A stretch of 64,000 nt of DNA from Escherichia coli (GTDB taxonomy: Bacteria; Pseudomonadota; Gammaproteobacteria; Enterobacterales; Enterobacteriaceae): assembly GCF_011045215.1 (NCBI RefSeq), contig NZ_CP049201.1; one strand, 5' to 3'. The translations under genes were made by a program, and so were the position numbers. Positions within the stretch are counted from its first letter, which is position 1, and each line of letters starts with the position of its first letter. Below are positions 7,718 through 45,530 of the stretch, piece after piece. The notes below the pieces were generated by a model. That model was given only the letters and a program-made list of their open reading frames with translations, was not told where the DNA came from and made no database searches.

Positions 7718-8299
7718 TCACTCCACCCACTCATCCCGGATACCCCGGGTATCATCAGCACTGATACCACTGACTTTTTCTGTTGCCATCACATAACCGT
7801 AACCAAAAATACGCCCCCTGCTGTTTCCGTAAAGATGAACACTGAACCAGCTGCGCAGATTTTTGGCACGGAGCACCGCATGCTTCAGATCCTGATAGTC
7901 ATTCATCTGTACCGGTAAATCCTTCTGCTCCACATTCAACCGGAAGGTATAGGGTTCACCTGGTGGCGTCTGCTCATACCACTCCACAATCTGTGACCGG
8001 AACGGGCTGTCTGTCAGTGATTCGTTCAGAGCGGCTTTTGTTCCCCGGTGACGATGGATATAAGCGGCACGTTTTATCGCCGCTCTTTTTTCCGCCTCCG
8101 TCCAGTGTTCATTCCAGGCGTCCACCGACATTTCCCAGGCCAGCCATGGCAGCAATTCCGTCGGACATAAATCGGGATTTTTTACATAGCGGATCAGACA
8201 GACCGCGATTTCCGCCAGCATATCACCGGCGGTACTGTCCACCACCCGCTCTGCCCGGCTGGCGCTGACAGGAAGTATGCTTCTGATGATGTCATTCAT
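7718..8299 (-). CDS. Baseplate/tail formation protein I
   Basis: 193 aa between J and tail fiber, as in P2. Confidence 0.65.
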   Translation of the reverse strand: MNDIIRSILPVSASRAERVVDSTAGDMLAEIAVCLIRYVKNPDLCPTELLPWLAWEMSVDAWNEHWTEAEKRAAIKRAAYIHRHRGTKAALNESLTDSPFRSQIVEWYEQTPPGEPYTFRLNVEQKDLPVQMNDYQDLKHAVLRAKNLRSWFSVHLYGNSRGRIFGYGYVMATEKVSGISADDTRGIRDEWVE

Positions 8300-9206
8300 C
8301 GGTTGCCTCCACCTTGTTCAGTGTGACTGAGCGACACCATGGAGCCTGTCCCATCGCCGGAACAATATCACTGGCCGGCGATTTCAGTGCCACCGTAATC
8401 ACCCCCGTCTGATGCAGGGCTCCGTCCATACCGGAGCAGGACGCCACAGAACCAATCCGGTGAACACTGTCAGTGTATGTCTGCAGCGCCTGACGGGCAT
8501 TTTTCATCACCAGTTCACCATCCAGCCCGTAGGGAATATGAATATCTGCAACCACATCGTAGAGAATAATTTCTGCCGCACGGACACTGACAAAATCCGT
8601 CAGAGGTCGAATTTCATCATCATTGACTGACGCTGCCACCTTATCCAGCAGGGGTTGCGATGCCGTACCGTTTCCGGTTCGCGATAACACATAAAGAAAA
8701 ACACGCCCTTCCTGTGAATGCGTTTCCGGCCCGTAGGCTTTCACATCCAGCACATCAGGATCAGCACTCTGTGCAAAATAATGGTAAGCATTTTTCGCAC
8801 CGGCTGTACTGAGTCGCGCCCACGACAACTGAATACGCTCACGAAAGGCATCATCCCCTTCATACACCGCCGGTGTGGGCGGGATAGTGCTGTCATCTGC
8901 CGGAGTAATCACCAGACGTTGCACCTGAAAATTCGCACCAATCTGATCCAGATCGTTCCTGCGGGCACTGGCAAGCAGTACAGCCCGGACTGCATCATTG
9001 ACCTGCTGGCGCATCAGCGCCACCCGAAAAGCAAGCGCCTCCGCCCATTTATACGCCGGATCTGATTCCACCAGGGCCGAAAACAACGTGTCCAGTTCCT
9101 GATATTTCGCCACTATCTGAGTGACCAGCACAGCGGTGTCCGGCACCTCCACCGCATCCGGTACAGGTATCGCGGACAAATCAATAATGGCCTGAGACGT
9201 TGTCAA
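8292..9206 (-). CDS. Baseplate assembly protein J
   Basis: 304 aa, gpJ-like, between W and I. Confidence 0.8.
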   Translation of the reverse strand: MTTSQAIIDLSAIPVPDAVEVPDTAVLVTQIVAKYQELDTLFSALVESDPAYKWAEALAFRVALMRQQVNDAVRAVLLASARRNDLDQIGANFQVQRLVITPADDSTIPPTPAVYEGDDAFRERIQLSWARLSTAGAKNAYHYFAQSADPDVLDVKAYGPETHSQEGRVFLYVLSRTGNGTASQPLLDKVAASVNDDEIRPLTDFVSVRAAEIILYDVVADIHIPYGLDGELVMKNARQALQTYTDSVHRIGSVASCSGMDGALHQTGVITVALKSPASDIVPAMGQAPWCRSVTLNKVEATDE

Positions 9207-9537
9207 TTCTGATTTCCTCCAGACGAATTGTTTCCTGTGTTTCGTTATTCACGCCCAAAAGCGTCAACATGACATTTCCCTCACCGCCGAAGCTCACCTC
9301 CACACGGCGGATCGTCAGTCTCGGTTCCCAGCGTTCAAGAGCGGTAACCGTCTCACGGACAATCCTCACCCGTGTGAAATCATCCTGCGGGTTATCAAGC
9401 AGACTGAACAACCTGCTGCCGTATTCCCTGAGAAGTACCCGGCTGCCGACTGGTGTTGACAAAATATCGGTGACGGACTGACGCAGATGTTCGTTACCGT
9501 GCAGATATCTGCCGGTGGCGGAATCAATACCAATCAT
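9181..9537 (-). CDS. Baseplate protein W (GPW/gp25 family)
   Basis: about 118 aa from MIGIDSATGRY...; between V and J. Confidence 0.7.
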   Translation of the reverse strand: MIGIDSATGRYLHGNEHLRQSVTDILSTPVGSRVLLREYGSRLFSLLDNPQDDFTRVRIVRETVTALERWEPRLTIRRVEVSFGGEGNVMLTLLGVNNETQETIRLEEIRIDNVSGHY

Positions 9538-9571
9538 GAAATTTTTCCGAAAAAAAACGCCGGTGCGGCGT

Positions 9572-10195
9572 TCACATTTCCTGGTTAGGTTTACGGGTGG
9601 TTCCCCCGCTGTCGCCAGGGTGATCATGAGTATTATAAATTTCGCGAATTTTACTCATGCTGCCGGTTTTATCGGTGATCTCCTGTGAGGCACCGATATT
9701 GCCCAGAACCTGCGTATCGGCATTAATCTTCGTTTCTCCCTGCACAGTCAGGGTATCCGTGATTTCCACCGGACCGTCCAGCGTTCCCCTGCCGGTGATT
9801 TTATAGCTGCCGCTTTCAGCCAGCGTGATGGACAGGGCATTGGCTTTACGGTCGTAACGGATTTCCGTTCCGGTATCAAACAAAATAACATGCTCGTGTT
9901 CACTGCCCGCCGGTACAGGAATGGCGTCAATATTCGCCCCCGGATACACACGACCGTTACGCAGATCGCCCGCCTCCGATATCACCGTGACCGCATCTCC
10001 TGGTGCCGGGTAATTACTGACCTGCATGTAACGCCCGGACTGCATCTGAATCCAGGGCAACGGCGGCGAAAGCACATCTCCGATATCCACCCGAACCATC
10101 ACCGGGTTACCCGGGATCACCTCTTCCACCACGCCGCGACGGATCATGTCCGCCACCCTGCGGCGTAACTCTGCCACTTCATCCGCCAGACTCAT
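9572..10195 (-). CDS. Baseplate spike/assembly protein V
   Basis: Start MSLADEVAELRRRVADMIRRG... resembles P2 gpV N-terminus; ORF track 5' extension to 10354 unlikely to be coding. Confidence 0.75.
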   Translation of the reverse strand: MSLADEVAELRRRVADMIRRGVVEEVIPGNPVMVRVDIGDVLSPPLPWIQMQSGRYMQVSNYPAPGDAVTVISEAGDLRNGRVYPGANIDAIPVPAGSEHEHVILFDTGTEIRYDRKANALSITLAESGSYKITGRGTLDGPVEITDTLTVQGETKINADTQVLGNIGASQEITDKTGSMSKIREIYNTHDHPGDSGGTTRKPNQEM

Positions 10196-10711
10196 CGCCG
10201 GTGCCCTCCGCTTTCCAGATAAGACGATAATCCTGCACATGCTTTTTACCGGTTTCCGGTACTTTACCCAGCCAGACTTCCTGTAACGGCACACCTGCCG
10301 GAGCCGCAAACGGATCTTCGCCGACCGGAATGTCCTGTTCAAAAGAGAAAGCAAACAAACAAGATAATAAGTTGAATTTAAAGGAATAAAAAAGGCATCA
10401 TTTTTGCTTTTGGTACAAATTCTAGTCCGTATAAACGCGGAAAAATCCGCTAAATTAAGATAAAAAAGATGCTTAGATAGTTACTATGTTTAGCTTCATG
10501 GCTACGGGGAGTAAGTTTGCTCTTTGCTTAATCTCGGTTATGGAAATCCCCATATCGGCATCATGCCCACCAGCGTGACGCATTTTTTTTAATTTCGCGG
10601 GTATAAAAATTTGACGAGGCGGGCGGTCCCATAAGCAATGGGGTGTAGGGATTCCGATCCCCCTGGGGGGGGTATTAAACACCCACCCTATTTAAATACC
10701 GTCTTTTTTGT

Positions 10712-10757
10712 CACTGTGTGTCACTGGTTGTCACTCTCCGTCACGGTATGCCACCAT
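10712..10757. repeat. Clustered GTCAC(T) direct repeats
   Basis: tgtcactgtgtgtcactggttgtcactctccgtcacgg: four copies within 46 bp in a noncoding stretch between tail and island. Confidence 0.6.
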
Positions 10758-10760
10758 AAG

Positions 10761-11075
10761 TTAACGTCGTAACCGCTCCGGCTTCTTCCAGTGGTAAGTA
10801 ATTTTTTCTTTCTCCTGGTACATCTGCACGCGGCGACGGTATGACAACATCTCCAGAACTCTGGTGCGTATATTGCGCATATCCACGCCGTTAAGCTCAA
10901 TACCGTCACGGCGCATCACCTCAGCCACCACACGCGCGTAATTTTCGGCTATCACGCTGTCCGGCTGCGTGGCCTCCTGTTTGCCTGCTGGTGGTCTGAT
11001 TCCGGCAGCACGGCGAATCATTTTGAGCATTTCGGCTTCGGTCATTGTCATGGCCTCCGTGGTGATGGAAAACAA
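10761..11075 (-). CDS. Hypothetical protein
   Basis: 104 aa ORF (probable start MTMTEAEMLKMI...) just downstream of island terS; no family recognised. Confidence 0.4.
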   Translation of the reverse strand: MFSITTEAMTMTEAEMLKMIRRAAGIRPPAGKQEATQPDSVIAENYARVVAEVMRRDGIELNGVDMRNIRTRVLEMLSYRRRVQMYQEKEKITYHWKKPERLRR

Positions 11076-11084
11076 TGCCGTAAT

Positions 11085-11310
11085 TGTGGCGGGTCCTTCC
11101 TGGAAAATGAAACACCGGGGGTGGCCATACGCGCAATTCTTAACTGTTTATGAAAATTTTTCGGGAAAAGTCAGATCCGTTCTTCTTCTCTGTAACTCAT
11201 TGTTTAATGGTAAAATCATCAAAAAAAGAAAGGATCTGGCAGTGGTCATTCTGGGCCCAAAATGACGTTATCAGATCCTTTCTCAGTTTTGTTCAATAAT
11301 TGCGCGGTTG
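11085..11310 (+). other. cos-like site, inverted copy (cosQ-cosN-cosB-like)
   Basis: Plus strand GGGTCCTTCCTGG..GAAACACCGGGGGTGGCCATACGCGC..TTTATGAAAATTTTTCGGG..CCGTTCTTCTTC aligns with phage lambda cos as I recall it; opposite orientation to the other two cos sites. Confidence 0.55.
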
Positions 11311-11895
11311 TCACTCAGCTCTCTGTTGCCGTAACTTCTCCGGCACGTTTCCGGTTGTTTCCATCAGATAATCTTCCAGAATGCGGGGCAGGTTATCGGC
11401 AGTTTTAGCGCACGCATTACAGGCGCGTGCTGTTTCCCTCCTCAGGCCATCGATCATTGCCGGAGTCATCGCGGGAAACTGCCTTTGCATCGTAAGGGGC
11501 AAGCTATTCATGATGGTTGAAATCTGTTGCGCCAGTTTAGACAGTGCATACATACAAAAGCCGGTATCTATAACCTCTCCTGTCTCCCTGGCGTTCTTCA
11601 GTTCCTGCCCGTCAGCCTGTGCTTTAGTGAGACGGTATCGTTCGTACTCTGTTGTGCCTGGCTGTAAATCTGATTCACCAACGGCACGTAAATCATCAAG
11701 CTCACTGCGGAGTTTTTCTTTTTCGATCTCCTTCTCCCTCTGTACATACCATTCGATCACCTGTGAAGAGTCGAAAGTCACCTCCATACCTTTTCCGCCA
11801 CCAGATACATGGGGGAGCCCTTGCATCTGCCAACGTTCAATTGTGCGCGGATCAACACCGAAAATCTCTGCCAGTCTCTTTTTGTTAACATTCAT
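11311..11895 (-). CDS. Terminase small subunit (lambda Nu1-like)
   Basis: MNVNKKRLAEIFGVDPRTIERWQMQGLP...GGGKG...LQPGTTEYERYRL... closely resembles lambda Nu1 throughout. Confidence 0.85.
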   Translation of the reverse strand: MNVNKKRLAEIFGVDPRTIERWQMQGLPHVSGGGKGMEVTFDSSQVIEWYVQREKEIEKEKLRSELDDLRAVGESDLQPGTTEYERYRLTKAQADGQELKNARETGEVIDTGFCMYALSKLAQQISTIMNSLPLTMQRQFPAMTPAMIDGLRRETARACNACAKTADNLPRILEDYLMETTGNVPEKLRQQRAE

Positions 11896-12130
11896 TTATC
11901 AAATCCTCATCAAAAACCACCTCCGACATGAAACGCCTGAAAAACGGGATTTTCCGGCGTTATGGTGTCGTATGTTTATTATAGTTAATTTAAATAAAAA
12001 CATAATGTTACATGCAAGAAGTACCGACATGCTTTTTCCCTGAAAAATTTTCATAAATAGTGAAAATCTGCGCGTCTGCCGCCCCGCGGTGTTTCTGATT
12101 CTGGAAAGGACCCGTGAAAATTGGGGCGAT
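11896..12130 (-). other. cos site of island (cosQ-cosN-cosB)
   Basis: Minus strand ACGGGTCCTTTCC..GAAACACCGC GGGGCGGCAGAC GCGCAG..CTATTTATGAAAATTTTTCAGG about 190 nt upstream of terS start, matching lambda cos geometry. Confidence 0.6.
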
Positions 12131-12194
12131 CACCACCGTTCCGGATACAAAAAAAATCGCGAGACCTTGCCAGCCTCGCGAACGTTCATTTCAG

Positions 12195-12620
12195 TTACTT
12201 AACAGACAGCAACAGCTTTTCATCTTCGGTCAGTCCGGCGTTGCCATCACCGGCTGCTGGCCCAACACATTTCGGGCTGTGCTTTTCCATGTACGCTTCA
12301 AACAGAAAAGCCGTTTTCTTTTCCTGCATCATTGCCTGGGCATCCACGGCAGCCAGTAACGTTTGTGCATAGGTTACTGTCATTACTTCAGAACCACACT
12401 CAATCAGCTTACTGGTGAACTCAGGGTATTTTGATGCCAGCGGTAACGCCTTGATACCCTCTATGCGCTGTTTATCACTCTCAGCCTTTGCAGTAAGCAC
12501 CGTTCGGGCTTCTGTCAGTGATGCGCCATTATTTGCGAGATTTTCCGCAAGCGTCGGGTATTTCTGCGCCTCAGGCAGTGCCATGATCAATGCTCTGGTT
12601 GAATTTGCTTTCTCAGTCAT
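12195..12620 (-). CDS. Scaffolding protein (Nu3-like)
   Basis: 141 aa; ALPEAQKYPTLAENL.../ALPLASKYPEFTSKL... repeats resemble the C-terminal repeat region of the prophage C protein (24914-26395). Confidence 0.5.
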   Translation of the reverse strand: MTEKANSTRALIMALPEAQKYPTLAENLANNGASLTEARTVLTAKAESDKQRIEGIKALPLASKYPEFTSKLIECGSEVMTVTYAQTLLAAVDAQAMMQEKKTAFLFEAYMEKHSPKCVGPAAGDGNAGLTEDEKLLLSVK

Positions 12621-12634
12621 AAATCACCACAAAA

Positions 12635-12964
12635 TTATTGCCCTAAAGGCTGCACGGAAATACCGGAACCAACAAAAGACGACACTTTTTTCTCGAACGT
12701 GTCCGCTGTATCAGGCCAGTTAATTTCATCGATATTAAAAACCCCGCACTTATAAACCTGTGCGCGGTTTTTTGTGGCCGTGTTAATGTCCGATATGGTC
12801 AGATACACCGCCTTACCGGGTGTACCGTCCCACTCAACCATCAGGCCCGCGCCGTTCTGCATCAGCGGAGTTCTCGCTTTAATTTCTCCGGCACTGGCAA
12901 AACAGGCCAGCGTGCTGACCAGTTCCTGCGTGCCGGAAAGGAATTGCGTGTAAGGTGTTGGCAT
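12635..12964 (-). CDS. Head decoration protein (lambda gpD-like), divergent second copy
   Basis: 109 aa; TPLM...GLMVEWDG...VYKCGVF...WPD...GSGISV pattern matches gpD. Confidence 0.75.
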   Translation of the reverse strand: MPTPYTQFLSGTQELVSTLACFASAGEIKARTPLMQNGAGLMVEWDGTPGKAVYLTISDINTATKNRAQVYKCGVFNIDEINWPDTADTFEKKVSSFVGSGISVQPLGQ

Positions 12965-12974
12965 ACGATCCCCT

Positions 12975-14030
12975 TTATTTCACTTCGACGGTAACAAAGC
13001 GACCAATATCCACGGGTACTGGCTGCGGGGCGCTGTGCGTCTGCACGTATTCAATCGCCGGATCGCCCGGTACGATATAATTTTTCGGGTAGTACATCCC
13101 CTCAGAAAATCCCTCGCGTGCCGCGTCCTGATCCATGATGGCACCATAAGCAACAAGGCCTTTATTTTCGGTATTGCCGAAAACCATCATGTTTTGTTTC
13201 AGGAAATATTGCTGCTGCCCGTTTTCGTCGTCATAACGACCGGAATAAACCACGATCGCCACATCACCGAGATACCCCTTGAAGCTGACAACGCCGCCCA
13301 AATCTTTTAGCGCAAGTTCAAGTGACGAGTTTGAACCGCGACGCGTGTCCATTAGTTCGCGGAATCGACGGAACGAGCGCAAAATACGCCAGGCTTCGCC
13401 ACCCATGACGATAATATTTACCGTACCTTCGGAAAAATCAGCGTAAGCCTCAATGTCGCTTATCGGATCAAACGTTTCGGCATCCTGTTTTGACCATTCT
13501 TTCCCGCCAGCCTGCGTAATATGATTGGTTTCGGGTAATCCCCAGTCAATTTCATAACGCTCAATGCCTTCGCCCTCAATAACGTTACGGCCTGTTGTGA
13601 TGGCATTGACCGCCAGCCATTCAACACGCGCTTTGATGGCAGCAAGCTGTTTTTTCTGGCTGTCGTGAACCATTTTTACGCGGCGTAGTGCCGGGGAAGA
13701 CTGACCATTGCCGATCTGTTCTCCAGGCATGCGCATGATTGTTTTGGTGGGATCAATAACGTGTTTGGGCTTCATATAACCCGGCGTGAACGTGTTCGTT
13801 GTGAAACCTTTGTCACGCATAACCTGGCTGCCTGACATTGGAGAACAAAACGGACTCATGACCACGTTTTCAATATCCAGCGTATCAAGTGCAATATCTC
13901 TGGTGCTGAAAGTAGCGACGTTCGGAAAGAACAACGTAGTAAAGAGTGGATTAAATTTAAATTCCGGCACATCTTCGCGCCCGATATTTTTCAGTAGCGT
14001 TGGTGTGCTTACCAGTTGCGGCGCTGTCAT
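12975..14030 (-). CDS. Major capsid protein (lambda gpE-like), divergent second copy
   Basis: 351 aa; TPGYMKPKH, NITQAGGKEWSKQDAETFDP, DTRRGSNSSLELALKDLG motifs shared with lambda E and the prophage E at 23439-24467. Confidence 0.85.
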   Translation of the reverse strand: MTAPQLVSTPTLLKNIGREDVPEFKFNPLFTTLFFPNVATFSTRDIALDTLDIENVVMSPFCSPMSGSQVMRDKGFTTNTFTPGYMKPKHVIDPTKTIMRMPGEQIGNGQSSPALRRVKMVHDSQKKQLAAIKARVEWLAVNAITTGRNVIEGEGIERYEIDWGLPETNHITQAGGKEWSKQDAETFDPISDIEAYADFSEGTVNIIVMGGEAWRILRSFRRFRELMDTRRGSNSSLELALKDLGGVVSFKGYLGDVAIVVYSGRYDDENGQQQYFLKQNMMVFGNTENKGLVAYGAIMDQDAAREGFSEGMYYPKNYIVPGDPAIEYVQTHSAPQPVPVDIGRFVTVEVK

Positions 14031-14236
14031 TACTCACCCCCATGAGGCTGATTCATACCAAGCGCAGCGCGTAAATGGCTGCGTACCATCCAGCCGACTG
14101 ACGGCTTCACCAGGCACAACGGATCAAGGCCGATTTTTTTTCCTGCCTCTGCGTTCTCCTCAAAGCGCGCATTAAGTGCGGCGATAATATCGGGGCTGAT
14201 GTACACGGATACACCGCCCGGCTTCTGTGTTCCCAT
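14030..14236 (-). CDS. Hypothetical protein
   Basis: Small ORF immediately upstream of island capsid gene; no family recognised. Confidence 0.3.
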   Translation of the reverse strand: MGTQKPGGVSVYISPDIIAALNARFEENAEAGKKIGLDPLCLVKPSVGWMVRSHLRAALGMNQPHGGE

Positions 14237-14494
14237 AAATGAGATTCCTCTTTGACTAAAAAACAAACATAACGAAAAGTCATGTCATGATTTTAATTAT
14301 CGTTGCACTTTTTGCAATATAATTGACTATTGTTGCGAATAATGAAATCATTATGTCGTGGTTTTAATCCTTGTACCACAGAGTTGTTTAGCATTAATCA
14401 CGTTAGCGGCGTGAAATCCCCCGGAACCTCATCCCGGGGGATTTTTTTGCGCACAAAAAAGCCGGGAAAAATCCCGGCTTCTGTCACTCGTTGC

Positions 14495-14917
14495 TTAAAA
14501 CGGTATTTCATCCCCGTACGGATCATCATTTCCCGCCTGTTGTTTTGCTCTGCTCAGTGCATCAGTAGCCTGCCCCTGTTGGCCTTTTTTGCCGCCCGGT
14601 CGCGCCGTTCTGGCACTGATTACACTGTCTGCGATAACCTGCCAGCTCTGCCGCGTTTCGCCGTTCTGGCCTGTCCACTGGCTTACCTGCATGTTACCCG
14701 CCACGCTCACCAGTTCGCCTTTGCGGTGTTTTGCCAGTGCGTCGGCCTGTCTGCCAAACGCCAGGACGGATAACCACATCGTCGCCGTTCCGTCATCTGC
14801 CTGGCTGCACGGCAGGGGAACCGCCATACTCGCCATCGCCATTTGTGTTCCCTTGCTGGTGGTCTTTAACTGCGGGTCAGCCACCAGCCGCCCGTAAGCT
14901 GCTATCTGTGCTGTCAT
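14495..14917 (-). CDS. ssb: Single-stranded DNA-binding protein
   Basis: 140 aa with Gly/Gln-rich linker and acidic C-terminal tip ...DDPYGDEIPF typical of SSB. Confidence 0.7.
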   Translation of the reverse strand: MTAQIAAYGRLVADPQLKTTSKGTQMAMASMAVPLPCSQADDGTATMWLSVLAFGRQADALAKHRKGELVSVAGNMQVSQWTGQNGETRQSWQVIADSVISARTARPGGKKGQQGQATDALSRAKQQAGNDDPYGDEIPF

Positions 14918-15165
14918 GCTGTCTGCTCTCCGGTTTTAACGTTGATGGTTGTCACCTGTTCCGCTTCGGCAATCTCCCGCTCTGTCAGCGTGGCAAAGTT
15001 TGCCGCCGCTGTGGTCATGAATGCGCTTATCAGTTCGGGATGTGCTTTTGCGTATCCTTCTCCGGCATGGCGGTCTATTGTTCTGATTGCCACCTTTAAG
15101 GCGTGCTCTGTCATGTCTAACGCTTTATATTTTGGCGCTGTCTTATCTCTGGTTTTTTTGGTCAT
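14914..15165 (-). CDS. Hypothetical protein
   Basis: 83 aa ORF between replication gene/iterons and ssb. Confidence 0.4.
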   Translation of the reverse strand: MTKKTRDKTAPKYKALDMTEHALKVAIRTIDRHAGEGYAKAHPELISAFMTTAAANFATLTEREIAEAEQVTTINVKTGEQTA

Positions 15166-15188
15166 TTCTCACTATTCCCCACTTTTTC

Positions 15189-15367
15189 GCCTCACTTTTT
15201 AAGCTCCCAACATGATTTCCAACCTTGTTTTTTTGTGATTCTAATATGTTGTTTTTCAATGTGTTTTTTATTCCTCACTTTTGAGCCTATATACAGGTTG
15301 AAAAGTGAGGGGCGCGGTTGCTTTTTGTTCAGTTTCTGCTATCCCCTCACTTTTGTGCCTCACTTTT
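15189..15367. repeat. Iteron cluster (putative island replication origin)
   Basis: CCTCACTTTT at 15189, 15273, 15345, 15358 plus inverted copy AAAAGTGAGG at 15301, directly 3' of helicase-primase gene. Confidence 0.55.
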
Positions 15368-16782
15368 TACAGTGGGCGCACATCATCACCGTCAATAGTG
15401 ATAACGCCGTCTCTTTCCAGCTTGTACAGCCAGCGCCGAAAGTTTTTCATCTCATACCCCAGCTTTTTCATATCATCACGCAATAACGGGATAGTGCATT
15501 TATCGCCGCGCTGTGTGCGTGAACGGATACAGCCCCATAGCGCGGCGTGATTCTCCGTCTTGTTTCCGGCCTCCTCAATGCGCTCCAGTTCAACAGGTGG
15601 GCGCGGCTTATCCACTACCACCAGCGACGTGATTAACTCCTTGTCAGCGTCGATAAAAAGCTCCACCACGCGTAAATCGTATGCGGCCTCTTTCAGTTCC
15701 TCTGCGTCCTTCATTTTGGTGCAGGAGATAACCAGGGCTTCACTGTCTGCACCTTCCCGGCGAATACGGTATTCAGCGTCCAGAGATGCACGAAATGCAC
15801 TGGAACCACGCGCCCCCTTTGTTTCATCCTTGCCGGAATGGTGAACCACCAGTACCGTGGCCCCTGTGCGTCGTTTCAGTTCGTCACATCCACGGATAAA
15901 CGCCCCCATATCCCGCGCGTCATTTTCATCATTACCGCCAAAACACCGCGCCAGCGTATCCAGAATAATCATGCGTACCGGTTTACCCGTTTCCCTTTCA
16001 ACCTGGCGGGAAGCGATGACCATTTCATCAATATCAAACTGTGCTGCCGGAAAAATCGGGCGGTTTACCAGGTACAGATTTTTCACCCGTTCATCATTAA
16101 CGATTTCCCATGCTTTGATACGACGAGGGACACCAATGCCACCTTCACCGACGACATACATCACCGAACCATGCGCCACCCTGCGGCCTCCCCAGTGGCG
16201 ACCCGTGGCAACATGACACGCCCAGGAACACGCGAGGAATGATTTATAGGAACCGCTCGCGCCGTATGTGCTGCACAACGAATTAGCCGGAATCACGCCC
16301 TTAACGACATAATCAAGCTGTGTGTCGTACCCTGCAGATCCAATACTCATTGGTAGCGTGGTTTTTCGCTGGTCGTTTTTTTCTTCCTCCGGTATCTCTC
16401 CGGACCGTCTTTTCTGGCGCTCTCGTTCCAGATATTCGCGCCACCCCTCCCGCTTCTGGCTGTGCATTCCCTCAGGGTAATAATTCGCATCCCGTACACC
16501 TGCCGCTGCCAGCTTTTGCCCGATGGCATTAATATTTGACGGCTTGATGTGGCCTGCCTTGTACAGCCGGACACAATAGCGACCATCGTCGATAATTTTC
16601 AGGTCAGCCAGTTCGTCAAGATGGCTGTCTCCAAGCCATACAGGCGGAACATTGTCGCCAGCAAGTCGCCCGTCCTGCTCCTGCCATTGTTTCGCGTGCG
16701 CCCAGGCATCACTACCCGCAAAAATAATGACTTCGGTCATTTTGTCGTGCGGCTGTTTTTTTAAGTTCGGTGCCAGTTTCAT
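15367..16782 (-). CDS. Replication protein, RepA-like helicase/primase (AAA_25-type P-loop NTPase)
   Basis: 471 aa; Walker A GASGSYKS, Walker B RMIILDTLARCF, ...VLVVHHSGKDE...; N-terminal extra domain. Confidence 0.7.
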   Translation of the reverse strand: MKLAPNLKKQPHDKMTEVIIFAGSDAWAHAKQWQEQDGRLAGDNVPPVWLGDSHLDELADLKIIDDGRYCVRLYKAGHIKPSNINAIGQKLAAAGVRDANYYPEGMHSQKREGWREYLERERQKRRSGEIPEEEKNDQRKTTLPMSIGSAGYDTQLDYVVKGVIPANSLCSTYGASGSYKSFLACSWACHVATGRHWGGRRVAHGSVMYVVGEGGIGVPRRIKAWEIVNDERVKNLYLVNRPIFPAAQFDIDEMVIASRQVERETGKPVRMIILDTLARCFGGNDENDARDMGAFIRGCDELKRRTGATVLVVHHSGKDETKGARGSSAFRASLDAEYRIRREGADSEALVISCTKMKDAEELKEAAYDLRVVELFIDADKELITSLVVVDKPRPPVELERIEEAGNKTENHAALWGCIRSRTQRGDKCTIPLLRDDMKKLGYEMKNFRRWLYKLERDGVITIDGDDVRPL

Positions 16783-17078
16783 TTTTTACCCCTGAATGCG
16801 TTAATCATGTTTTTCATTTTCTGAATGTTCGCCCGTGCCTTTGCGTTGCTGGTGGGCTGTTTGCATGGCGTGGCCTGTATCAGTGAAAAATCACGCCGGA
16901 ACTGATAAACAGGCATCACGCAGTCATAGCCGTACCCATCACGGCGGTAAGTAACGCACCGTCCCGCCACGCTTTTAATCGTTACCGTGCCGCCGTAGTT
17001 ATCCCGGAAAATATCGCCGGGGCGGATTTCAGGCCGAGCGGGGCCGCTGGCAGTAAAGCCAGAAATTTTCTGTTTCAT
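16779..17078 (-). CDS. Hypothetical protein
   Basis: 99 aa ORF, start overlaps helicase-primase gene. Confidence 0.4.
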   Translation of the reverse strand: MKQKISGFTASGPARPEIRPGDIFRDNYGGTVTIKSVAGRCVTYRRDGYGYDCVMPVYQFRRDFSLIQATPCKQPTSNAKARANIQKMKNMINAFRGKK

Positions 17079-17094
17079 GGTTTTTATTCCTCTG

Positions 17095-17294
17095 CGCGGG
17101 TCTTGTTGTGTATTTCCATAACCGCGTTTAATTCATCAATAACCGGGGTTAACAGAGTGCTGAAAGCAGAAAATAAATCCCCCCCCCTGTTCGGCATGAA
17201 CTTCGGTTAATTTAATTAATACCGCTTTCATTTCCAGTGCCCGGTTTAATGCATTCTCAGAATGAATAAGAACATCGAAAGGGATTTTATCCAT
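17095..17294 (-). pseudogene. Small ORF interrupted at G9 homopolymer (frameshift or phase-variable)
   Basis: ATG at 17294 reads MDKIPFDVLIHSENALNRALEMKAVLIKLTEVHAEQGGG then poor frame; with G8 it continues ...DLFSAFSTLLTPVIDELNAVMEIHNKTRAEE to a stop 5 nt before next gene. Confidence 0.35.
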
Positions 17295-17753
17295 GGCTTA
17301 CATCCTCCGGGAATTTTCTTCTGTAACGCGCCTCTGCAACATATTCCGCATAGTCCGACGCAATATTGAGAATCTCCACACCCTCTGACCTGTAGCCACT
17401 GGTACTGATAAGAAAAAATGCGGCTTTCATCATGTCGGCAACGCATAACAACGCATCGCCTGTATGTTCCGGTGCGCCATCAAATTCCTGTTTCAGGGCA
17501 TTAAAACGATCATCACGCATAACCCCCCCCCATTTTCACAATCAGTAATCAGGATGGCTTTAGCCTCATTCAGTGCCATATCAGCACTAAATTGCATAAC
17601 AGCCAGTGAGTGAGGAACGAAATCCCCGGCATATTCTGTTTCGCTGGTGGCGTGCTTATGTGCCCTGTCCGCGATAACAGAAATATCAATCAGCGCGTGC
17701 ATCAGCGTTTTGATGGCTTCGGCGGCTGCGTCCTGACGGGTGTTATTGCACAT
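17287..17753 (-). pseudogene. Gene split by G9 homopolymer (86-aa + 77-aa ORFs; fuse with G10)
   Basis: ORF 17493-17753 ends ...CENGGGLCVMIVLMP; one extra G in the tract at 17523-17531 gives ...GGGVMRDDRFNALKQEF... continuous with ORF 17287-17520. Confidence 0.4.
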
Positions 17754-17949
17754 GGCGCACCTCCTGACGAATACGGGCGGCGAATACCATCACGCAGCCA
17801 TCAGGAGATTGCTGACGCGCTTCCTGTTCGTTGGTGGCCTCAATGGTAATCACGCGCGGTTGTGCCGTGCTCAGGGCGATAAAACGCCAGATGTATTTAT
17901 TCAGGTTGTGCGAGTCCCGCCCTTGCGGGTGTGTGGTATGATTTAACAT
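17743..17949 (-). CDS. Small protein, first gene of leftward island operon (Cro-like position)
   Basis: 68 codons (MLNHTTHPQGRD...RHVQ) with RBS GAGGT; divergent from RHH gene across operator region; not in ORF track as a separate ORF. Confidence 0.4.
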   Translation of the reverse strand: MLNHTTHPQGRDSHNLNKYIWRFIALSTAQPRVITIEATNEQEARQQSPDGCVMVFAARIRQEVRHVQ

Positions 17950-18088
17950 AGCTACCTCGATAATCTTGCTATCGTTGGTGGTTAGACGCCCTGCATGTGT
18001 ACCACCACTGCGGGGCGTTGCGTTTTTTGATGTGCACGTGTTAAGGTGTACACCTAACGAACCAAAACATAACGCCATAGGTGTACAC
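17950..18088. promoter_or_regulatory. Divergent promoter/operator region of island
   Basis: Perfect palindrome GGTGTACACC at 18045-18054 and GGTGTACAC at 18080-18088 just before the RHH start; CACGTG at 18033. Confidence 0.5.
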
Positions 18089-18283
18089 ATGTCAACAGTT
18101 ATTAAGCGCGATAAAAAACAAAAAGGCACAGGAAAGGCCCCACCATTCCATATGCGTATAGTCCCTGAATTGAAGGAGCAGTTTGATAACGAAGCCAGTA
18201 ACGATGGAGTAAGTCTTGCCAACTGGCTTAAAGAGTTAGGGCGCAAAGAACTGCTACGGCGCGGAATTGAACCAAAGGGATAA
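18089..18283 (+). CDS. Ribbon-helix-helix-like DNA-binding protein (putative island repressor or antitoxin)
   Basis: 64 aa from MSTVIKRDKKQKG...; basic N-terminus, start right after operator palindromes. Confidence 0.45.
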   Translation: MSTVIKRDKKQKGTGKAPPFHMRIVPELKEQFDNEASNDGVSLANWLKELGRKELLRRGIEPKG

Positions 18284-18292
18284 CTATCACTA

Positions 18293-18823
18293 ATGTCGCA
18301 ACCAGAGGAGTTGCGACTCCGAAGATTACATAGGAAATTAATGATTATGGGATTCGTCATTTTCATTGCGATCGTAATTTTATCCATTTACGTTCTTACC
18401 AAATTATTTATTTCAGAAAATTCACACGACAAAATTAGAGCCGAGGCATCCAGAAGAATTGCACAAGAAGAGGCCGAACGGGCTAAGTTGTATGAAGAGA
18501 GAAAGGAATCATCTGATAATCCTGTTAATAAACAAAAACGAATAACAACACACGAAGATCATTTTTATATGGATATTCATGGTGGTCACAAATATATATG
18601 TGTTGATGCTAAGTTAGTTTTTGAATATGCAAATTTAAAACACAACTATTTTCTTCACGCCTCTCACTATTTCCCTGAGTTAGAGTATGTTTATGGAAAA
18701 AACGAACATGGGAAAATAGTTAGAGTAGATTTGTACGATAAAAAAATTCAAGCTATTAACCCCGATACTGGCGAAAAAATACCTGGTGTGAGACGTTATC
18801 TACGACAGCACAAGATAAAATAG
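18293..18823 (+). CDS. Hypothetical membrane-anchored protein (AT-rich cargo gene)
   Basis: 176 aa; N-terminal TM helix MIMGFVIFIAIVILSIYVLTKLF; markedly AT-rich; followed by hairpin+T-run terminators. Confidence 0.45.
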   Translation: MSQPEELRLRRLHRKLMIMGFVIFIAIVILSIYVLTKLFISENSHDKIRAEASRRIAQEEAERAKLYEERKESSDNPVNKQKRITTHEDHFYMDIHGGHKYICVDAKLVFEYANLKHNYFLHASHYFPELEYVYGKNEHGKIVRVDLYDKKIQAINPDTGEKIPGVRRYLRQHKIK

Positions 18824-19238
18824 CCCACCGGAATTTTTTTCCGGTTACGCTTTGCCCACCAGCCGCAAATGTGGCATTGTTGGCTATGCTCATGCGTTGG
18901 GGATAACGCGCAATTAGTGTTGAAGGGCCACCGTAGCGGGTGGCCTTTGTTTTGCCTGTTATCCGGCAATTGTGGCGCTTCGCCACACGGTTGATATAAT
19001 CCTCCTGCACAGATTCATTTTTTGCGCAGCAGGTTAATTGTTCGCAAGGGCGCTCCGGCAACTGGGCGCTTTTTGTTTTTACCCACCAGCACAATAAAAA
19101 TCTTCATTTTCCATTTTTGCAAAATTTCATGCTTTCCGGACGACTGGCCATATGTCATTTTTTAGCAGAAGATTTTGCCTTGCTGGTGGGTAGCTTCCCG
19201 GTTAACACGATGTACCGTATAATCAGCACCGCACGCGG

Positions 19239-19820
19239 TTACTGAATACGCTCACCAAAGTAAAACTCAGGCTGATATTCACGTATCAGCCTTTTTTCTT
19301 CTTCCTCCAGCTCACGCTTTTTGCGCTTACATGCCTGTAGTTCCCTCCCCTTCTCGCTGGCACTTATCTGGTATTGCTCTTTGCGACGGGAAAAATCCTG
19401 TAATGCGCCCCACGGGATACCATAAGCCCCCGTTTTTCTGATACCCGGTATCACATTTCTGAATACCCAGTTACTGAAACGATGGGCGAACGTGCCAGGA
19501 GTAGCAGCTTTTCGACTTCTGGCAATCAGCTTGTAAAAACCAGATTCAGAAACGACGCTATGATTTGGATTTCCGCGAATACCGTAAGTTAAAGTTACGG
19601 TATTACTTTCATCATCATCCAGAGCTTGCAACGCCATGCGTGAATTAGTCAGTTCCAGCGCAGCGCAGACATCCTTTGCAACAAACCACGGATCGCCGTT
19701 CAGATACACCACGCGAACGTTCACACTATCAAAGCGCAGAACGACCAGATCACGAATATCACAGAATTTTTTCACTGGACGTGCGTCACCCTTGCCAGTC
19801 ACGGCAATATTTTTATTCAT
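19239..19820 (-). CDS. Bro-N domain protein (putative antirepressor)
   Basis: 193 aa; N-terminal ...GDPWFVAKDVCAALEL... Bro-N-like; coiled-coil C-terminus. Confidence 0.55.
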   Translation of the reverse strand: MNKNIAVTGKGDARPVKKFCDIRDLVVLRFDSVNVRVVYLNGDPWFVAKDVCAALELTNSRMALQALDDDESNTVTLTYGIRGNPNHSVVSESGFYKLIARSRKAATPGTFAHRFSNWVFRNVIPGIRKTGAYGIPWGALQDFSRRKEQYQISASEKGRELQACKRKKRELEEEEKRLIREYQPEFYFGERIQ

Positions 19821-19870
19821 CGCTTTTTACCTCACATACAAAAAACCCCGCATTGCGCGGGGTATATCAA

Positions 19871-20080
19871 TCATTGACGATATTCATTAGCTTGTTTTCG
19901 TTGTCTTTCCAGCCACGATGCAACATCATCACGATGCCATGCGTTGCGTCGCCCAATCTTAAAGGGGCGTGGAAATTTATTTTTTTCATCATTCATGAAA
20001 GCGTAAAATGCACTCATTGCACCGTAGCGAAGCTCTGCCATCACGTCTTTGGTAAATAGAATATTGCCGTTAGTGCTCAT
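19871..20080 (-). CDS. AlpA-family transcriptional regulator/excisionase-like
   Basis: 69 aa, ...RRNAWHRDDVASWLE... typical AlpA/Xis HTH; immediately downstream of P4-type int. Confidence 0.75.
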   Translation of the reverse strand: MSTNGNILFTKDVMAELRYGAMSAFYAFMNDEKNKFPRPFKIGRRNAWHRDDVASWLERQRKQANEYRQ

Positions 20081-20086
20081 ATTGCC

Positions 20087-21319
20087 TCACATATTCACTA
20101 CTTTTAGCCCCTGATGACCACCAGAACGACGGATAATTCCCTTTCTGGCATCATCAACAAAATCACCAATCCATTGCATCATGATCTTACGTTGCTCAAA
20201 ATATTTTGAGCGATTATAAATATCACGAATAGCATCGCCGCTTTTATGGGCTAATGCTGCCTCAATAACATCTGGGTTAAACCCTTCTTCGTTGAGTAAC
20301 GTACTCCACATAGCCCGGAATCCGTGGGCAGTTGCAATACCATAAAATTGTCCATCTTTGAAACACTTATGACGCAACACGCTTGATATAGCTTTCCCCG
20401 GATTCTTTGGAGAAAAAAATATATAGCTACCACATTTTATTTTATTCATTTCATTTAAAATATCCACGGCTTGCCGTGAAAGCGGAACTACGTGTTCACG
20501 TCCACACTTCATTCTTTCAGGGGGAATTGTCCAGATACAATTTTCTAAATCAATTTCCTCCCATTTTGCCTCCCTTGCTTCACATGGTCGTACCATAGTG
20601 AAAATCTGGAACAAAAGAGAGCATCTTATAGAGATATTACTTGTAGTATCCCACCAGTTCAAAAATTCTGATAACAGTTCAACTGGTAATGCCTTTAATG
20701 GGGTATGTTTTTTTGTTGCAAATGCATTTCTTATTGTTGATAGCGGGTTATTTTTAATTACTCCAGAGTTAACACAGTAATTCATTATTTCATTAATTTT
20801 TGAAATAATTTTATCCAATACAGAATTACGATCAGAAAATTGATTAAGCAATGGTATGACCACAGGCGCGGTCATATCATGTATGTACACATTTCCAAAT
20901 ACAGGGATTATATGTCTGTTCAATAACTCTTCTATTGTCTGTAAAGTCGACAGTCGCAAATCACCTTTTTTCTTAAAATTAAACCATTCAATTGCAATAG
21001 CACCAAACGTCTGTAAGTGCTTTCTTTTAGCCTCGAGTCGTTTTTCTGCCCGGTATGATAACGGATCTATATCCCGTGCCAACAATCTGCGCAGATTATC
21101 GCGTTCTTCTCTGGCTTCAACCAGCGTGAAATCGGGGTATCGCCCTATAGTGTATGTTTGCCGCTTCTTCGTAAAAGGTTGTACATAACGAAAACGCCAC
21201 GATTTACTACCGGCTTTTGACACATAAAGCAAAAGCCCAAACCCATCATATAGAGCGTAATCTTTCTCTCGTGGCCTGGCGCTTTTTACCTCTGATGCAG
21301 TAAGAGGCTTCACCGACAT
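20087..21319 (-). CDS. Tyrosine integrase, P4/CP4-57 type
   Basis: N-terminus MSVKPLTASEVKSARPREKDYALYDGFGLLLYVSKAGSKSWRFRY typical of P4-like integrases; C-terminal catalytic domain ...AHGFRAMWSTLLNE... Confidence 0.9.
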   Translation of the reverse strand: MSVKPLTASEVKSARPREKDYALYDGFGLLLYVSKAGSKSWRFRYVQPFTKKRQTYTIGRYPDFTLVEAREERDNLRRLLARDIDPLSYRAEKRLEAKRKHLQTFGAIAIEWFNFKKKGDLRLSTLQTIEELLNRHIIPVFGNVYIHDMTAPVVIPLLNQFSDRNSVLDKIISKINEIMNYCVNSGVIKNNPLSTIRNAFATKKHTPLKALPVELLSEFLNWWDTTSNISIRCSLLFQIFTMVRPCEAREAKWEEIDLENCIWTIPPERMKCGREHVVPLSRQAVDILNEMNKIKCGSYIFFSPKNPGKAISSVLRHKCFKDGQFYGIATAHGFRAMWSTLLNEEGFNPDVIEAALAHKSGDAIRDIYNRSKYFEQRKIMMQWIGDFVDDARKGIIRRSGGHQGLKVVNM

Positions 21320-21433
21320 ACAAGCACTCCAATACAAATTTTTTCTAGTCCATGCGCTGGTTCCTTTTGCCAGAATACTGGCGATAAAAAAGCGAAAAAC
21401 AAGGAACAATGCACACAATGAAAAAACCGCAAC

Positions 21434-21898
21434 TTATTGAATAAGAAGAAAAACAAAAAGAAACGGTAACGAAAGATAATGATTGCATAGTCCAAAAGAG
21501 ACACGGAAAACGATGTAGTCGTCCAGCAGTCGGTCGAAGGTATCCACCTCAGCATCAATAAAAACCGCCGGATCAACGTTATCCAGCCCGAACGTGGCTC
21601 CATCAATCCAGTCAGATAAATCCATTGCCAGACAGCGGGCAAATATCTGCGGTTTTGGCACGTTTTCCGTCTTTCCGGCCCGATCAGTCACCACAAACAG
21701 ATCGCATTTCAGCGTGACCCGTGTCTGCCCGTCGGCAAACTGAGCCTTGTCCCAGCCGGGTACATCCACAAACACGGCAGGCGTCACCAGTTGCGTCACT
21801 TTTTCCGGGTACTCATCGGCATCTTCCACCCAGGGAATTTGTTTCAGACTGTCAATCACTGCCTGATGCCAGGTTCCCATCATCAATGGTTCCATCAT
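21434..21898 (-). CDS. Putative tail-completion/head-tail adaptor-like protein, C-terminus atypical at island junction
   Basis: 154 aa after Z-like gene; last about 20 residues (LCNHYLSLPFLFVFLLIQ) are low-complexity and read into the A-rich junction next to island int. Confidence 0.4.
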   Translation of the reverse strand: MMEPLMMGTWHQAVIDSLKQIPWVEDADEYPEKVTQLVTPAVFVDVPGWDKAQFADGQTRVTLKCDLFVVTDRAGKTENVPKPQIFARCLAMDLSDWIDGATFGLDNVDPAVFIDAEVDTFDRLLDDYIVFRVSFGLCNHYLSLPFLFVFLLIQ

Positions 21899-22617
21899 TC
21901 CATCCCCTTAAATACCCGGAATTTCAGTTCATGCTCAAAATTTTTCAGGATCAGTGCTTCCGCATCAGGGAAAACAAAATCCTCTATACGGTTCAGCATG
22001 GCTTCATAAATATCAATTTCCGCTTCGCGCACCCTTCGTCGTCCGGATGCCTGCCGGACCAGTACCGTCTTACGTCGTGAAATGCGTCCGCGCCGGTTTT
22101 CAGACTCAAACTCATTAACAAAAGCCTCGTCACCTGACCAGGTGGTGACCGGTATTGCCTCCCCGGCGGGCTTAAAACGTATCTCCGGCGCTTTCCTGCG
22201 ACGGGAAGCCGGTGCAAAACGCCCCCGTTCATCACGCAGCTGATGGCGTTCACCGCGTCGCCCCCCACTGATGCGTCCGCGCAGATCACGCACTTTGATG
22301 GCGTTCAGGCCGAACCACACCTTTACCTCATCAAACTCATCGCCATTTCGACGAATGATAAAAGCATTCAGGACACGTTTTTTGATCATTTTCTGGCTGC
22401 GTGGCGCAACCTGTTTTTTAAACTCTGCCATGGCCTTCATCCGCAGTGCGGACGCGGCTCTTTTCAGCGCCACGCCCCAGGCTTTACGGATCTGGCTTTT
22501 TGAACCACCCAGTTTAGCGATAATTTTCAGCACATCATCCTCGTCAATATCGACGACGAGGTTTCGTGCCAGCCGTCGCTGCCGGACAGTGCTTCGTTCA
22601 TGCTCTCTGACTGTCAT
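21895..22617 (-). CDS. Head-tail joining/virion morphogenesis protein (gpZ-like position)
   Basis: About 240 aa basic protein following FII-like gene. Confidence 0.45.
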   Translation of the reverse strand: MTVREHERSTVRQRRLARNLVVDIDEDDVLKIIAKLGGSKSQIRKAWGVALKRAASALRMKAMAEFKKQVAPRSQKMIKKRVLNAFIIRRNGDEFDEVKVWFGLNAIKVRDLRGRISGGRRGERHQLRDERGRFAPASRRRKAPEIRFKPAGEAIPVTTWSGDEAFVNEFESENRRGRISRRKTVLVRQASGRRRVREAEIDIYEAMLNRIEDFVFPDAEALILKNFEHELKFRVFKGME

Positions 22618-45313: not shown

Positions 45314-45530
45314 GGCTACCTCATCTGGTGCCGAACCTTCCTCCGGATATAATCTGTGGTTCCCAATCGACAGAACCAGAGGAGGTTCGACATGTATTTT
45401 TTGAAAAGCCTTTATCAGGCTCATGTATTAAATGTTGCAGCAACAAACCGCTGGTGTAACAGCCCCGAAATGCTCCCGGATTACAGAGCCTGGCTGCGCG
45501 CCGAAACATACCTTCGTCTCGACATATTGA

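Follow-up and report, generated by a model that had tools for sequence, protein, structure and literature searches.

What do four evenly spaced GTCAC repeats do in the noncoding DNA between the last gene of a mobile island and the baseplate gene V of a prophage? The question is raised by a 64,000-nucleotide stretch of Escherichia coli DNA (contig NZ_CP049201.1 of assembly GCF_011045215.1; "the window" below means this whole stretch), for which an original prediction, made from the letters alone, had offered integrase arm-type sites, iterons or a late-gene activator site as the role of the repeats. The noncoding stretch that holds them is the integrase-distal end, consisting of an attachment (att) arm and an accessory end, of a helper-embedded phage-inducible chromosomal island (HE-PICI; PICI for the islands in general). 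The island is 11.1 kb long (10347-21489) and splits a helper late gene adjoining gene V. The repeat array is an optional, cargo-like module that lies outside the integration, replication and packaging machinery of the island. Comparison with phage genes leads us to favour, tentatively and at clearly less than an even chance, the reading that it is a trans binding array for a GTCAC-type phage replication initiator, as a decoy or an auxiliary origin.

A phased GTCAC array next to the last gene of the island

The complete noncoding interval runs from 10347 to 10760 (414 bp) and is bounded by the island/helper junction and by the stop of the island's last gene, a 94-codon open reading frame (ORF) that we call ORF94. 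A noncoding stretch of 390 bp starting at 10370 had been proposed; its noncoding character holds, whereas its start does not, the junction (10346/10347) lying 24 bp further left. Two ORFs called mechanically, at 10473-10682 on the minus strand and 10638-10772 on the plus strand, are disrupted in relatives by an 8-bp indel and by changes in the length of a G run, and on this ground we treat the stretch as noncoding. The array and its neighbour are placed as follows.

10710..10754, plus strand: GTCAC array, four copies at a 10-bp period plus a degenerate fifth (GCCAC)
10761..11045, minus strand: ORF94, the island's last gene (phrog_1561), of a narrow enterobacterial PICI family

Perfect copies of GTCAC begin at 10710, 10720, 10730 and 10740 on the plus strand, at an exact 10-bp spacing, and the degenerate fifth copy begins at 10750. 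In order, the units read GTCACTGTGT / GTCACTGGTT / GTCACTCTCC / GTCACGGTAT / GCCACC. The four GTCAC(T) repeats announced between the island's last ORF and gene V are indeed present, about 2 nt away from the coordinates first given for them (10712-10757). On the minus strand, which is the operon strand of the island, the array reads GTGAC and its first base lies 6 nt past the ORF94 stop.

The word GTCAC itself is not enriched in the window (105 observed against 107 expected). The arrangement is what stands out: a three-copy pattern with 5-6-nt gaps appeared in none of 100 shuffles, nowhere else in the window does a 5-mer of any sequence occur four times at 10 bp, and 300 first-order Markov simulations failed to yield a single such run. 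Elsewhere in the island, including the int, alpA and origin regions, there is no second GTCAC cluster or phased pair. The array is non-random and unique in the window, and its copies lie on one face of the DNA helix.

Distribution and conservation of the array among PICIs

We retrieved PICIs through the ORF94 protein, a search that is unbiased as to the array. In 54 PICIs the ORF94 homologue is followed by sufficient sequence for a judgement, and of these 16 carry the array and 38 do not; EcCICFT073, an island that transfers well, has none, and neither does an island whose ORF94 is 97% identical (L257). Where present, the array always lies ~6-400 bp downstream of the ORF94 homologue. Array and ORF94 occur together in PICIs at tRNA-Pro (L003), at yifB (L004), at thiM/rcnR (L005), next to phoQ (L006, of the O157-type capsid-forming kind) and elsewhere (L008), and with either packaging type, that is, Rpp/Nu1-cos or the capsid-forming PICI (cf-PICI) type with HNH/TerS/TerL. 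Array-bearing islands with other Rep proteins have origin repeats of the type CYCCCACTTTT, or TGCGGGTTAT with a DUF927 primase, and the same GTCAC array. A comparison of gene content between the 16 islands with the array and the 38 without it yielded no real protein family that tracks the array; the top associations were spurious ORFs over the repeat regions themselves. Across the islands compared, the array is independent of the int, rep and packaging modules, and it is optional. The array lies at the 3′ end, in PICIs a reported site of accessory or immune cargo (PMC11364771). A loose pattern scan of genome contigs added little, since the matches listed came mostly from unrelated high-GC genomes; the one useful match among those listed was in E. 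albertii.

Between the type of island found in the window and the EDL933 type, the block formed by ACCGTCTTTT and the array is 90-96% identical, whereas identity falls to 77-80% in ORF94 and the outer flanks bear no relation to each other, which gives two contexts for one block. Copy number is 3, 4 or 5 and changes by whole units, with the phase kept in every variant.

These patterns bear on the proposal that the array has no present function, being either a captured remnant of a phage origin or a tandem duplication, and spreads owing to its place in a recombination-prone module between conserved ORF94 and the variable 3′ end. The module is indeed mosaic, its insertions and deletions take out or add whole units, core and spacer positions vary at similar rates, and the majority of related islands lack the array; capture of helper DNA by PICIs is described in PMC10111431. 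What speaks against such decay is that the block is so well kept despite replaced flanks and a drifted neighbour gene, that the phase is exact throughout, and that the array is kept in many lineages and at many insertion sites. We consider a functionless remnant improbable.

In the same position, the 38 array-less PICIs carry other short repeat or palindrome units. Downstream of the ORF94 homologues in EcCICFT073 (L256 3655-3900) and in L249, L253, L257, L260, L271 and L303, these are one to five units of TAACNNGTTGATATTYYCG followed by a palindrome of 12-19 bp, in which a CAAWWTTG centre is flanked by arms that vary in a compensating manner (CTCAATTTTGAG, GCGCAAAATTGCGC, CCCCCATTGGGGG); TGGTSATAATSACCA palindromes are also present there. 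Some of the units resemble lambda O repeats. In array-less PICIs a Chi site (GCTGGTGG) directly follows the 3′ palindrome units, and the palindromes also cluster in the noncoding DNA of other viral contigs (L417, L419). We set aside the lambda O repeats as a model for these units: the likeness of ATCCCCCATTGGGGGAGG to lambda ATCCCTCAAATTGGGGGATT is suggestive, but the palindromes of the viral contigs are noncoding and do not lie in O genes. A 19-nt match between a PICI palindrome and L238 was likewise set aside, as it falls inside a coding ORF and is probably due to chance. In L253/L254, a homologue of the lambda Q-type antiterminator (PF06530; 6834-7226) lies in the 3′ accessory region just past the ORF94 homologue, and these PICIs have no capsid or packaging genes.

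The array resembles repeats in phage initiator genes

To find phage arrays we used the bare pattern, GTCAC four times at 10 bp, in viral contigs and sampled 120 of them. The array lies in or next to an initiator gene homologue in 42, another 17 are PICI ends, and many of the remaining sampled contigs have the same look. In Escherichia phage vB_EcoS-689R5, two clusters lie within the gene annotated as "DNA replication protein O" (phrog_3729, E 2e-256), the first with four GTCAC copies at 10, 10 and 11 bp, the second with five copies at 10, 10, 11 and 10 bp, followed by the AT/purine-rich GATAAAGATACAGATAAAGA. The array was compared with clusters at 2717-2752 and 2977-3022 of L415 and at 1429 and 1688 of L421, and with the 42 viral contigs. 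Initiator homologues down to ~30% identity keep GTCAC arrays, and Pseudomonas phage phi1, which was retrieved by protein similarity alone, has both clusters. The origin repeats of lambda lie within its O gene, and by analogy the GTCAC clusters in phrog_3729 genes would be the origin iterons of this family.

With these putative iterons the array shares a 5-bp core, a 10(-11)-bp period, 4-6 copies per cluster and an AT-rich neighbour, and an exact 17-mer, TGTCACGGCGTGTCACT, is common to some PICI arrays and phage cluster 1. The two differ in that the phage repeats lie in the initiator gene and have their initiator in cis, whereas the array is intergenic and the element holds no cognate initiator; and phrog_3729 genes have two clusters where the island has one. 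A tblastn search with the N-terminal domain of the initiator found no homologue, either in the island or at 7 further PICI loci that bear the array. Because there is no initiator in cis, the array can be at most a mimic or a captured copy of such an origin, not a member of the family.

The helper prophage in the window encodes a replication initiator that is informative as to what the repeats depend on.

44204-45424, minus strand: helper prophage replication initiator, a hybrid; its C-terminal 200 residues are 91% identical to the GTCAC type and its N-terminal half is unrelated

The repeats within this gene are CTTCGAAGCCCCTTA, in three and two copies at 11-bp spacing (44838-44874 and 45105-45130). 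As the helper initiator departs from the GTCAC type in both its N-terminal half and its repeats while remaining 91% identical in the C-terminal half, the repeat type appears tied to the N-terminal domain. This is the classic lambdoid pattern, with origin specificity residing in the N-terminal domain. Among complete E. coli genomes, 2078 of 5426 (38%) have the GTCAC-type N-terminal region.

According to the trans-acting reading, the N-terminal DNA-binding domain of a phrog_3729-type phage initiator would bind the array in trans. The consequence could take two forms. In the first, the array of the amplified island would titrate the initiator and lower the replication of that phage, acting as an origin decoy that interferes with a helper or competitor. 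In the second, the phage initiator would fire replication of the island, and the array would be a borrowed auxiliary origin.

Several points weigh against this reading. The array's own helper, the prophage in the window, has repeats of another type and is thus beyond the reach of the array. The resemblance to phages was partly selected, since the search used the pattern itself, and the match to the phage repeats amounts to a 5-bp core, the spacing and the copy number. GTCAC clusters are missing from three distant initiator homologues (35-48% identity). The PICI array mostly has T directly after the core, where the repeats of E. coli phages mostly have G, and the AT-rich tract lies, relative to orientation, on the opposite side of the repeats from that in the phage origin. 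Among 16 distinct array variants we count ~4 substitution events in cores against ~6 in spacers; with rates this similar, core-specific selection is not demonstrable. Lastly, the arm-type sites of lambda Int also hold GTCACT, which means that another class of protein could read the array.

Possible roles for other proteins or for the array as RNA

One such alternative is that a different island or host DNA-binding protein (AlpA, ORF94, DUF4222 or an OmpR/PhoB-type regulator) forms a phased nucleoprotein complex on the array, where the PICI backbone ends on its 3′ side, perhaps so as to control the neighbouring accessory region or to mark where the operon ends. Four to five direct repeats phased at exactly 10 bp are a typical layout for cooperative binding, and the constant place of the array downstream of ORF94 homologues is in keeping with this; diverged islands (L249, L253) keep GTGAC motifs, in other arrangements, downstream of the ORF94 gene. 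TGTCAC is the half-site of Pho boxes, although these have an 11-bp period and an AT-rich spacer. Other findings argue the other way: no island protein co-occurs with the array, a nearly identical ORF94 (that of L257) does without it, and neither the alpA/int promoter region nor any other part of the island has a further GTCAC cluster. We rejected ORF94 itself as the binder, as no DNA-binding fold is recognisable in it and HHalign shows it to be dissimilar to the initiator N-terminal domain. Its family comprises only 34 clusters at 50% identity; the AlphaFold model consists of three helices at a predicted local distance difference test (pLDDT) score of 72, and the protein has no Pfam or PDB sequence match and no Foldseek match at E<=0.001 (best 0.69). 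Binding by another protein of this kind seems to us unlikely, if still a contender.

The position of the array, beginning 6 nt past the ORF94 stop on the operon strand, also admits a role as RNA. In this proposal GUGAC, repeated four to five times before a terminator, would form the 3′ untranslated region of the operon and would bind a protein or be antisense to GUCAC in phage initiator mRNA. In related islands a hairpin and a T run do follow the array on the operon strand (in type 1, L004/L132, and as a ATGACGTGGCCAACGTCAT-T6 hairpin in type 2), the 17 nt found identically in phage O genes would provide an antisense match of that length, and some islands encode ProQ/FinO proteins. In the window, however, the operon strand lacks a T run after the hairpin, a strict 10-nt period makes no evident sense for an RNA, and the argument from orientation is a coin flip. 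RNA folding of both strands gave no significant signal (z -0.6 to -1.2), and a scan of 8000-13000 against Rfam gave no match at E<=1. A scan for tRNA and tmRNA, prompted by a faintly tRNA-like look of one piece of the stretch (module A, below), found none. We regard action as RNA as quite improbable.

The stretch and its pieces at the island boundary

We mapped the island junctions by BLAST of both against the uninterrupted helper gene (L002 112-663, phrog_1072). Window positions 10068-10346 align with L002 1-279 and positions 21490-22090 with L002 270-870, an overlap of ~10 bp; the core, CAAAAGA(G)A, recurs at 21493-21499. The suspicion that the region might contain the second island boundary is borne out by the junction at 10346/10347. 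Pieces of the stretch were defined by the points at which matches to relatives begin and end. Strand is not assigned for the following features.

10337..10346: helper-side att core copy (GTTCAAAAGA); left junction at 10346/10347
10347..10545: integrase-specific att arm, AT-rich (33% GC), common only to the window, L001 and L002 (same insertion type)
10546..10663: module A, a block also seen by itself close to the ends of further PICIs (those at yifB, hpt and thiM)
10665..10672: G8 homopolymer, variable in length among relatives
10671..10709: imperfect AT-rich hairpin (GGTATTAAA..TTTAAATACC), then GTCTTTTTT; fold not significant
21490..21499: second core copy (GTCCAAAAGA) at the right junction, 21489/21490

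Module A contains a Chi site (GCTGGTGG, minus strand, 10567-10574) and the T8 tract (10583-10590), and the piece at 10664-10760 holds the hairpin, a T run and the array. The sequence ACCGTCTTTT, at the end of the 10671-10709 piece, is the one conserved along with the array in both flank contexts. Both homopolymers noted upstream of the repeats, T8 and G8, are present where expected. T8 is identical in the two closest relatives (L001, L002). The G run, which is placed within a CCCCC(T)GGGGG palindrome, has 8 residues in the window, 6 in L001, 4 in L002 and 4-5 in other relatives; judged by this variation, G8 looks like slippage or sequencing variation, not like a conserved signal. A consensus scan of 10300-11350 for promoters and terminators found one weak terminator-like site on the plus strand, at 10561-10588, which includes T8, and no sigma-70-like site. 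Megablast of the region against the phage collection gave no match.

Organisation of the helper-embedded island

Gene order was established from the annotation of the closest annotated relative, E. coli SA53-3 (L001, 97.6% identity), together with Pfam scans. On the minus strand the order is baseplate V, a 59-codon fragment of the helper gene, the noncoding stretch, the 94-codon ORF, a Nu1-type small terminase, a hypothetical gene, decoration D, capsid E, single-stranded DNA-binding protein (SSB), a RepA-family helicase (AAA_25), DUF4222, an Icd-like gene, Bro-N, AlpA and a tyrosine integrase. Beyond the integrase lie the other part of the helper gene and then lambda-like head genes. Island and both halves of the helper gene are all on the minus strand, so that the island is co-oriented with the late gene it splits.

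11082..11215, plus strand: cos2, a lambda-like cosQ/cosN/I1 element, inverted relative to the operon
11311..11895, minus strand: Nu1-family small terminase subunit (Pfam PF07471, E 2e-68; PDB 6hn7/1j9i)
11985..12130, minus strand: cos1, a lambda-like cos element upstream of terS and co-oriented with it
19871-20080: AlpA homologue, next after the integrase
20087..21322, minus strand: tyrosine integrase (Arm-DNA-bind_3 and Phage_integrase, by Pfam)

The island has the hallmark of an HE-PICI, with int and AlpA at one end, unidirectional genes, and Bro, replication and late zones in order. Written as a PICI type, the order is int-alpA-Bro-(DUF4222, RepA helicase, ori, SSB)-capsid E/D-cos1-terS/Rpp position-cos2-last small ORF, and the order of the whole island fits those of HE-PICIs (Tommasini, Mageeney and Williams 2023, PMC10111431) and of EcCICFT073-type cos PICIs (PMC6092414, PMC6739421). 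Both cos elements comprise a cosQ (GGGTCCT), a cosN-like segment and an I1-like CTATTTATGAAAATTTTTC, and they are inverted around the small-terminase gene. The layout cos1-terS-cos2 equals the experimentally studied cos1/rppA/cos2 of EcCICFT073 (L256 2529-3340; PMC6092414). The small terminase is strongly similar to residues 1-98 of lambda Nu1 and also matches RppC, though weakly (6hlk, E 0.002), as would be expected if Rpp derives from the small terminase subunit (TerS). At the TerS position related PICIs have Rpp (144-153 aa), and the island in the window and that of L001 have a full Nu1-family TerS.

Co-oriented insertion into a helper late gene is a trait that the island has in common with the HE-PICIs described in PMC10111431; the gene it has entered, phrog_1072, adjoins baseplate V of a P2-like tail module and may add another site to those described there. 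In TUM9812 (L002 8001 onward) an island end with the same terminal base as 10347 abuts a truncated terminase gpA. The same island family is thus seen in two helper late genes, phrog_1072 beside V (window and L001) and terminase gpA (L002). The gpA junction of L002 lacks the CAAAAGA core and may be a secondary site or a rearrangement.

Chi sites (GCTGGTGG) number 21 in the window where 2.0 would be expected, an enrichment of about ten-fold. The satellite contains ten, on both strands (10567-19189), and the flanking helper late genes contain none. The enrichment may protect the linear or rolling-circle DNA of the satellite from RecBCD.

The array does not behave as a set of integrase arm sites

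Arm-type sites of the island integrase, or sites of the AlpA excisionase, within an attP intasome are a further explanation for the repeats, integrase arm sites having been the first option of the original prediction. The consensus of lambda Int arm-type sites, C/AAGTCACTAT, contains GTCACT, and the sites stand at 10-bp spacing. In addition to this resemblance of the 10-bp direct repeats to lambda P′1-P′3, the island integrase has an arm-binding domain, and array and att junction share one intergenic stretch.

The distribution of the array contradicts the idea. It persists in islands whose integrases and att sites are unrelated (prophage gene, terminase gpA, tRNA-Pro, yifB, thiM side and phoQ side). 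At the phoQ-adjacent locus, the EDL933-type island has an array and EcCICFT073 has none. The array lies 363 bp from the core in the window and 363 to ~700 bp from the junctions overall, and a search for a copy near the int-proximal end found no GTCAC between 19802 and 21687. Lambda P′1-P′3 are like the array in being tandem direct 10-bp units with GTCAC(T), but they lie within ~100 bp of the core and recur in the other arm, neither of which is true of the array; strong lambda arm sites, moreover, have an invariant A after GTCACT that the array lacks, and the array, unlike lambda arm sites, is independent of integrase type.

A different pair of co-oriented motifs does lie at the distances expected for HE-PICI arms from PMC10111431. 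The motif TACAAATT(n)TTCTAGTCC occurs in both arms, at 10414-10428 and 21333-21351, ~81 and ~149 bp from the core, and is the likely arm motif of the island. Two words of the distal arm, TACAAATTCTAGTCC (10414-10428) and GATAAAAAAG (10459-10468), are repeated in the int-proximal arm at 21333-21351 and 21383-21392. For comparison, the HE-PICI arm motif given in PMC10111431 is a doubled TGTATTGC, ~81 and ~132 bp from the centre of attP, and its match in the island is weak (TGTATTGG/TGTATGTC at 21315-21336). We conclude that integrase or excisionase sites are a highly improbable identity for the GTCAC array.

Neither the island's own origin nor a tail-gene promoter

The suggestion of iterons fared better in one respect: the anatomy of the array is that of iterons. 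As iterons of the island's own replicon, in a second origin comparable to P4 crr/ori, they find a precedent in P4, which has two separated repeat clusters. The island, however, has a probable origin with repeats of another type.

15177..15367, strand not assigned: probable island origin, CCTCACTTTT five times, the repeats forming two sets with an AT-rich gap between them and adjoining the RepA-family helicase gene on its 3′ side

Repeat organisation of this kind at PICI origins is described for Gram-negative PICIs in PMC6092414. Origin repeats of the CCTCACTTTT type change with the type of Rep, and the array does not, which argues against the island's own iterons. A late promoter for V under Ogr/Delta control was the other role in view, the stretch lying upstream of V on the late strand. 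Promoters of this kind have a TGT-N12-ACA element ~55 bp ahead of the start, together with a -10 element. A check against the P2-type consensus gave no TGT-N12-ACA in 8365-15353 and no sigma-70 match, hence no promoter-like site; the stretch belongs to the island, not to the helper. In the island-free site the intact helper gene abuts V (L002 1-663), and the sequence of the stretch is absent upstream of V there. Own-replicon iterons and a late promoter are, in our estimation, scarcely tenable.

Discussion

The closest precedent for a trans binding array is the ectopic lambda origin. Lambda origin repeats placed outside the phage block lambda replication (PMC4488673, PMC3349717), and in this "inhibition phenotype" of plasmids, as proposed for the array, initiator-binding repeats sit without an initiator on a replicon that is not the phage. 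The shared effect would be a block of theta initiation in the cognate phage. The lambda decoys are laboratory constructs with 19-bp palindromic repeats on multicopy plasmids, and in one study oop RNA is needed as well; the element in the window, by contrast, would be a natural, satellite-borne one made of short direct repeats. A text search of the literature returned no report of satellites carrying helper-type origin repeats, and the GTCAC array is not mentioned in the sections and terms searched of PMC10111431, PMC6092414 and PMC6739421.

Extended to the family, the reading would be that E. coli PICIs, including the capsid-forming EDL933 type, carry at their 3′ end an optional mimic of the origin repeats of widespread lambdoid phages, without the initiator, as a decoy or a replication aid. 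We consider this possible but doubtful. The palindrome units in PICIs without the array may be equivalent mimics, directed at other phages. Should the initiator reading be wrong, the assignment of the stretch as the att arm and accessory end of an HE-PICI would stand, and the repeats would still not be integrase sites, an origin of the island or a promoter of the tail gene.

The known interference of PICIs with their helpers concerns packaging, capsid size and the assembly of tails, and the defence systems that PICIs are known to have at their ends are protein-based. If the initiator reading is true, a module made of DNA only and directed at a phage replication initiator would add a new layer, origin mimicry, to the conflict between satellites and phages, and it would help to account for the unannotated short repeats and palindromes that crowd the 3′ ends of enterobacterial PICIs.

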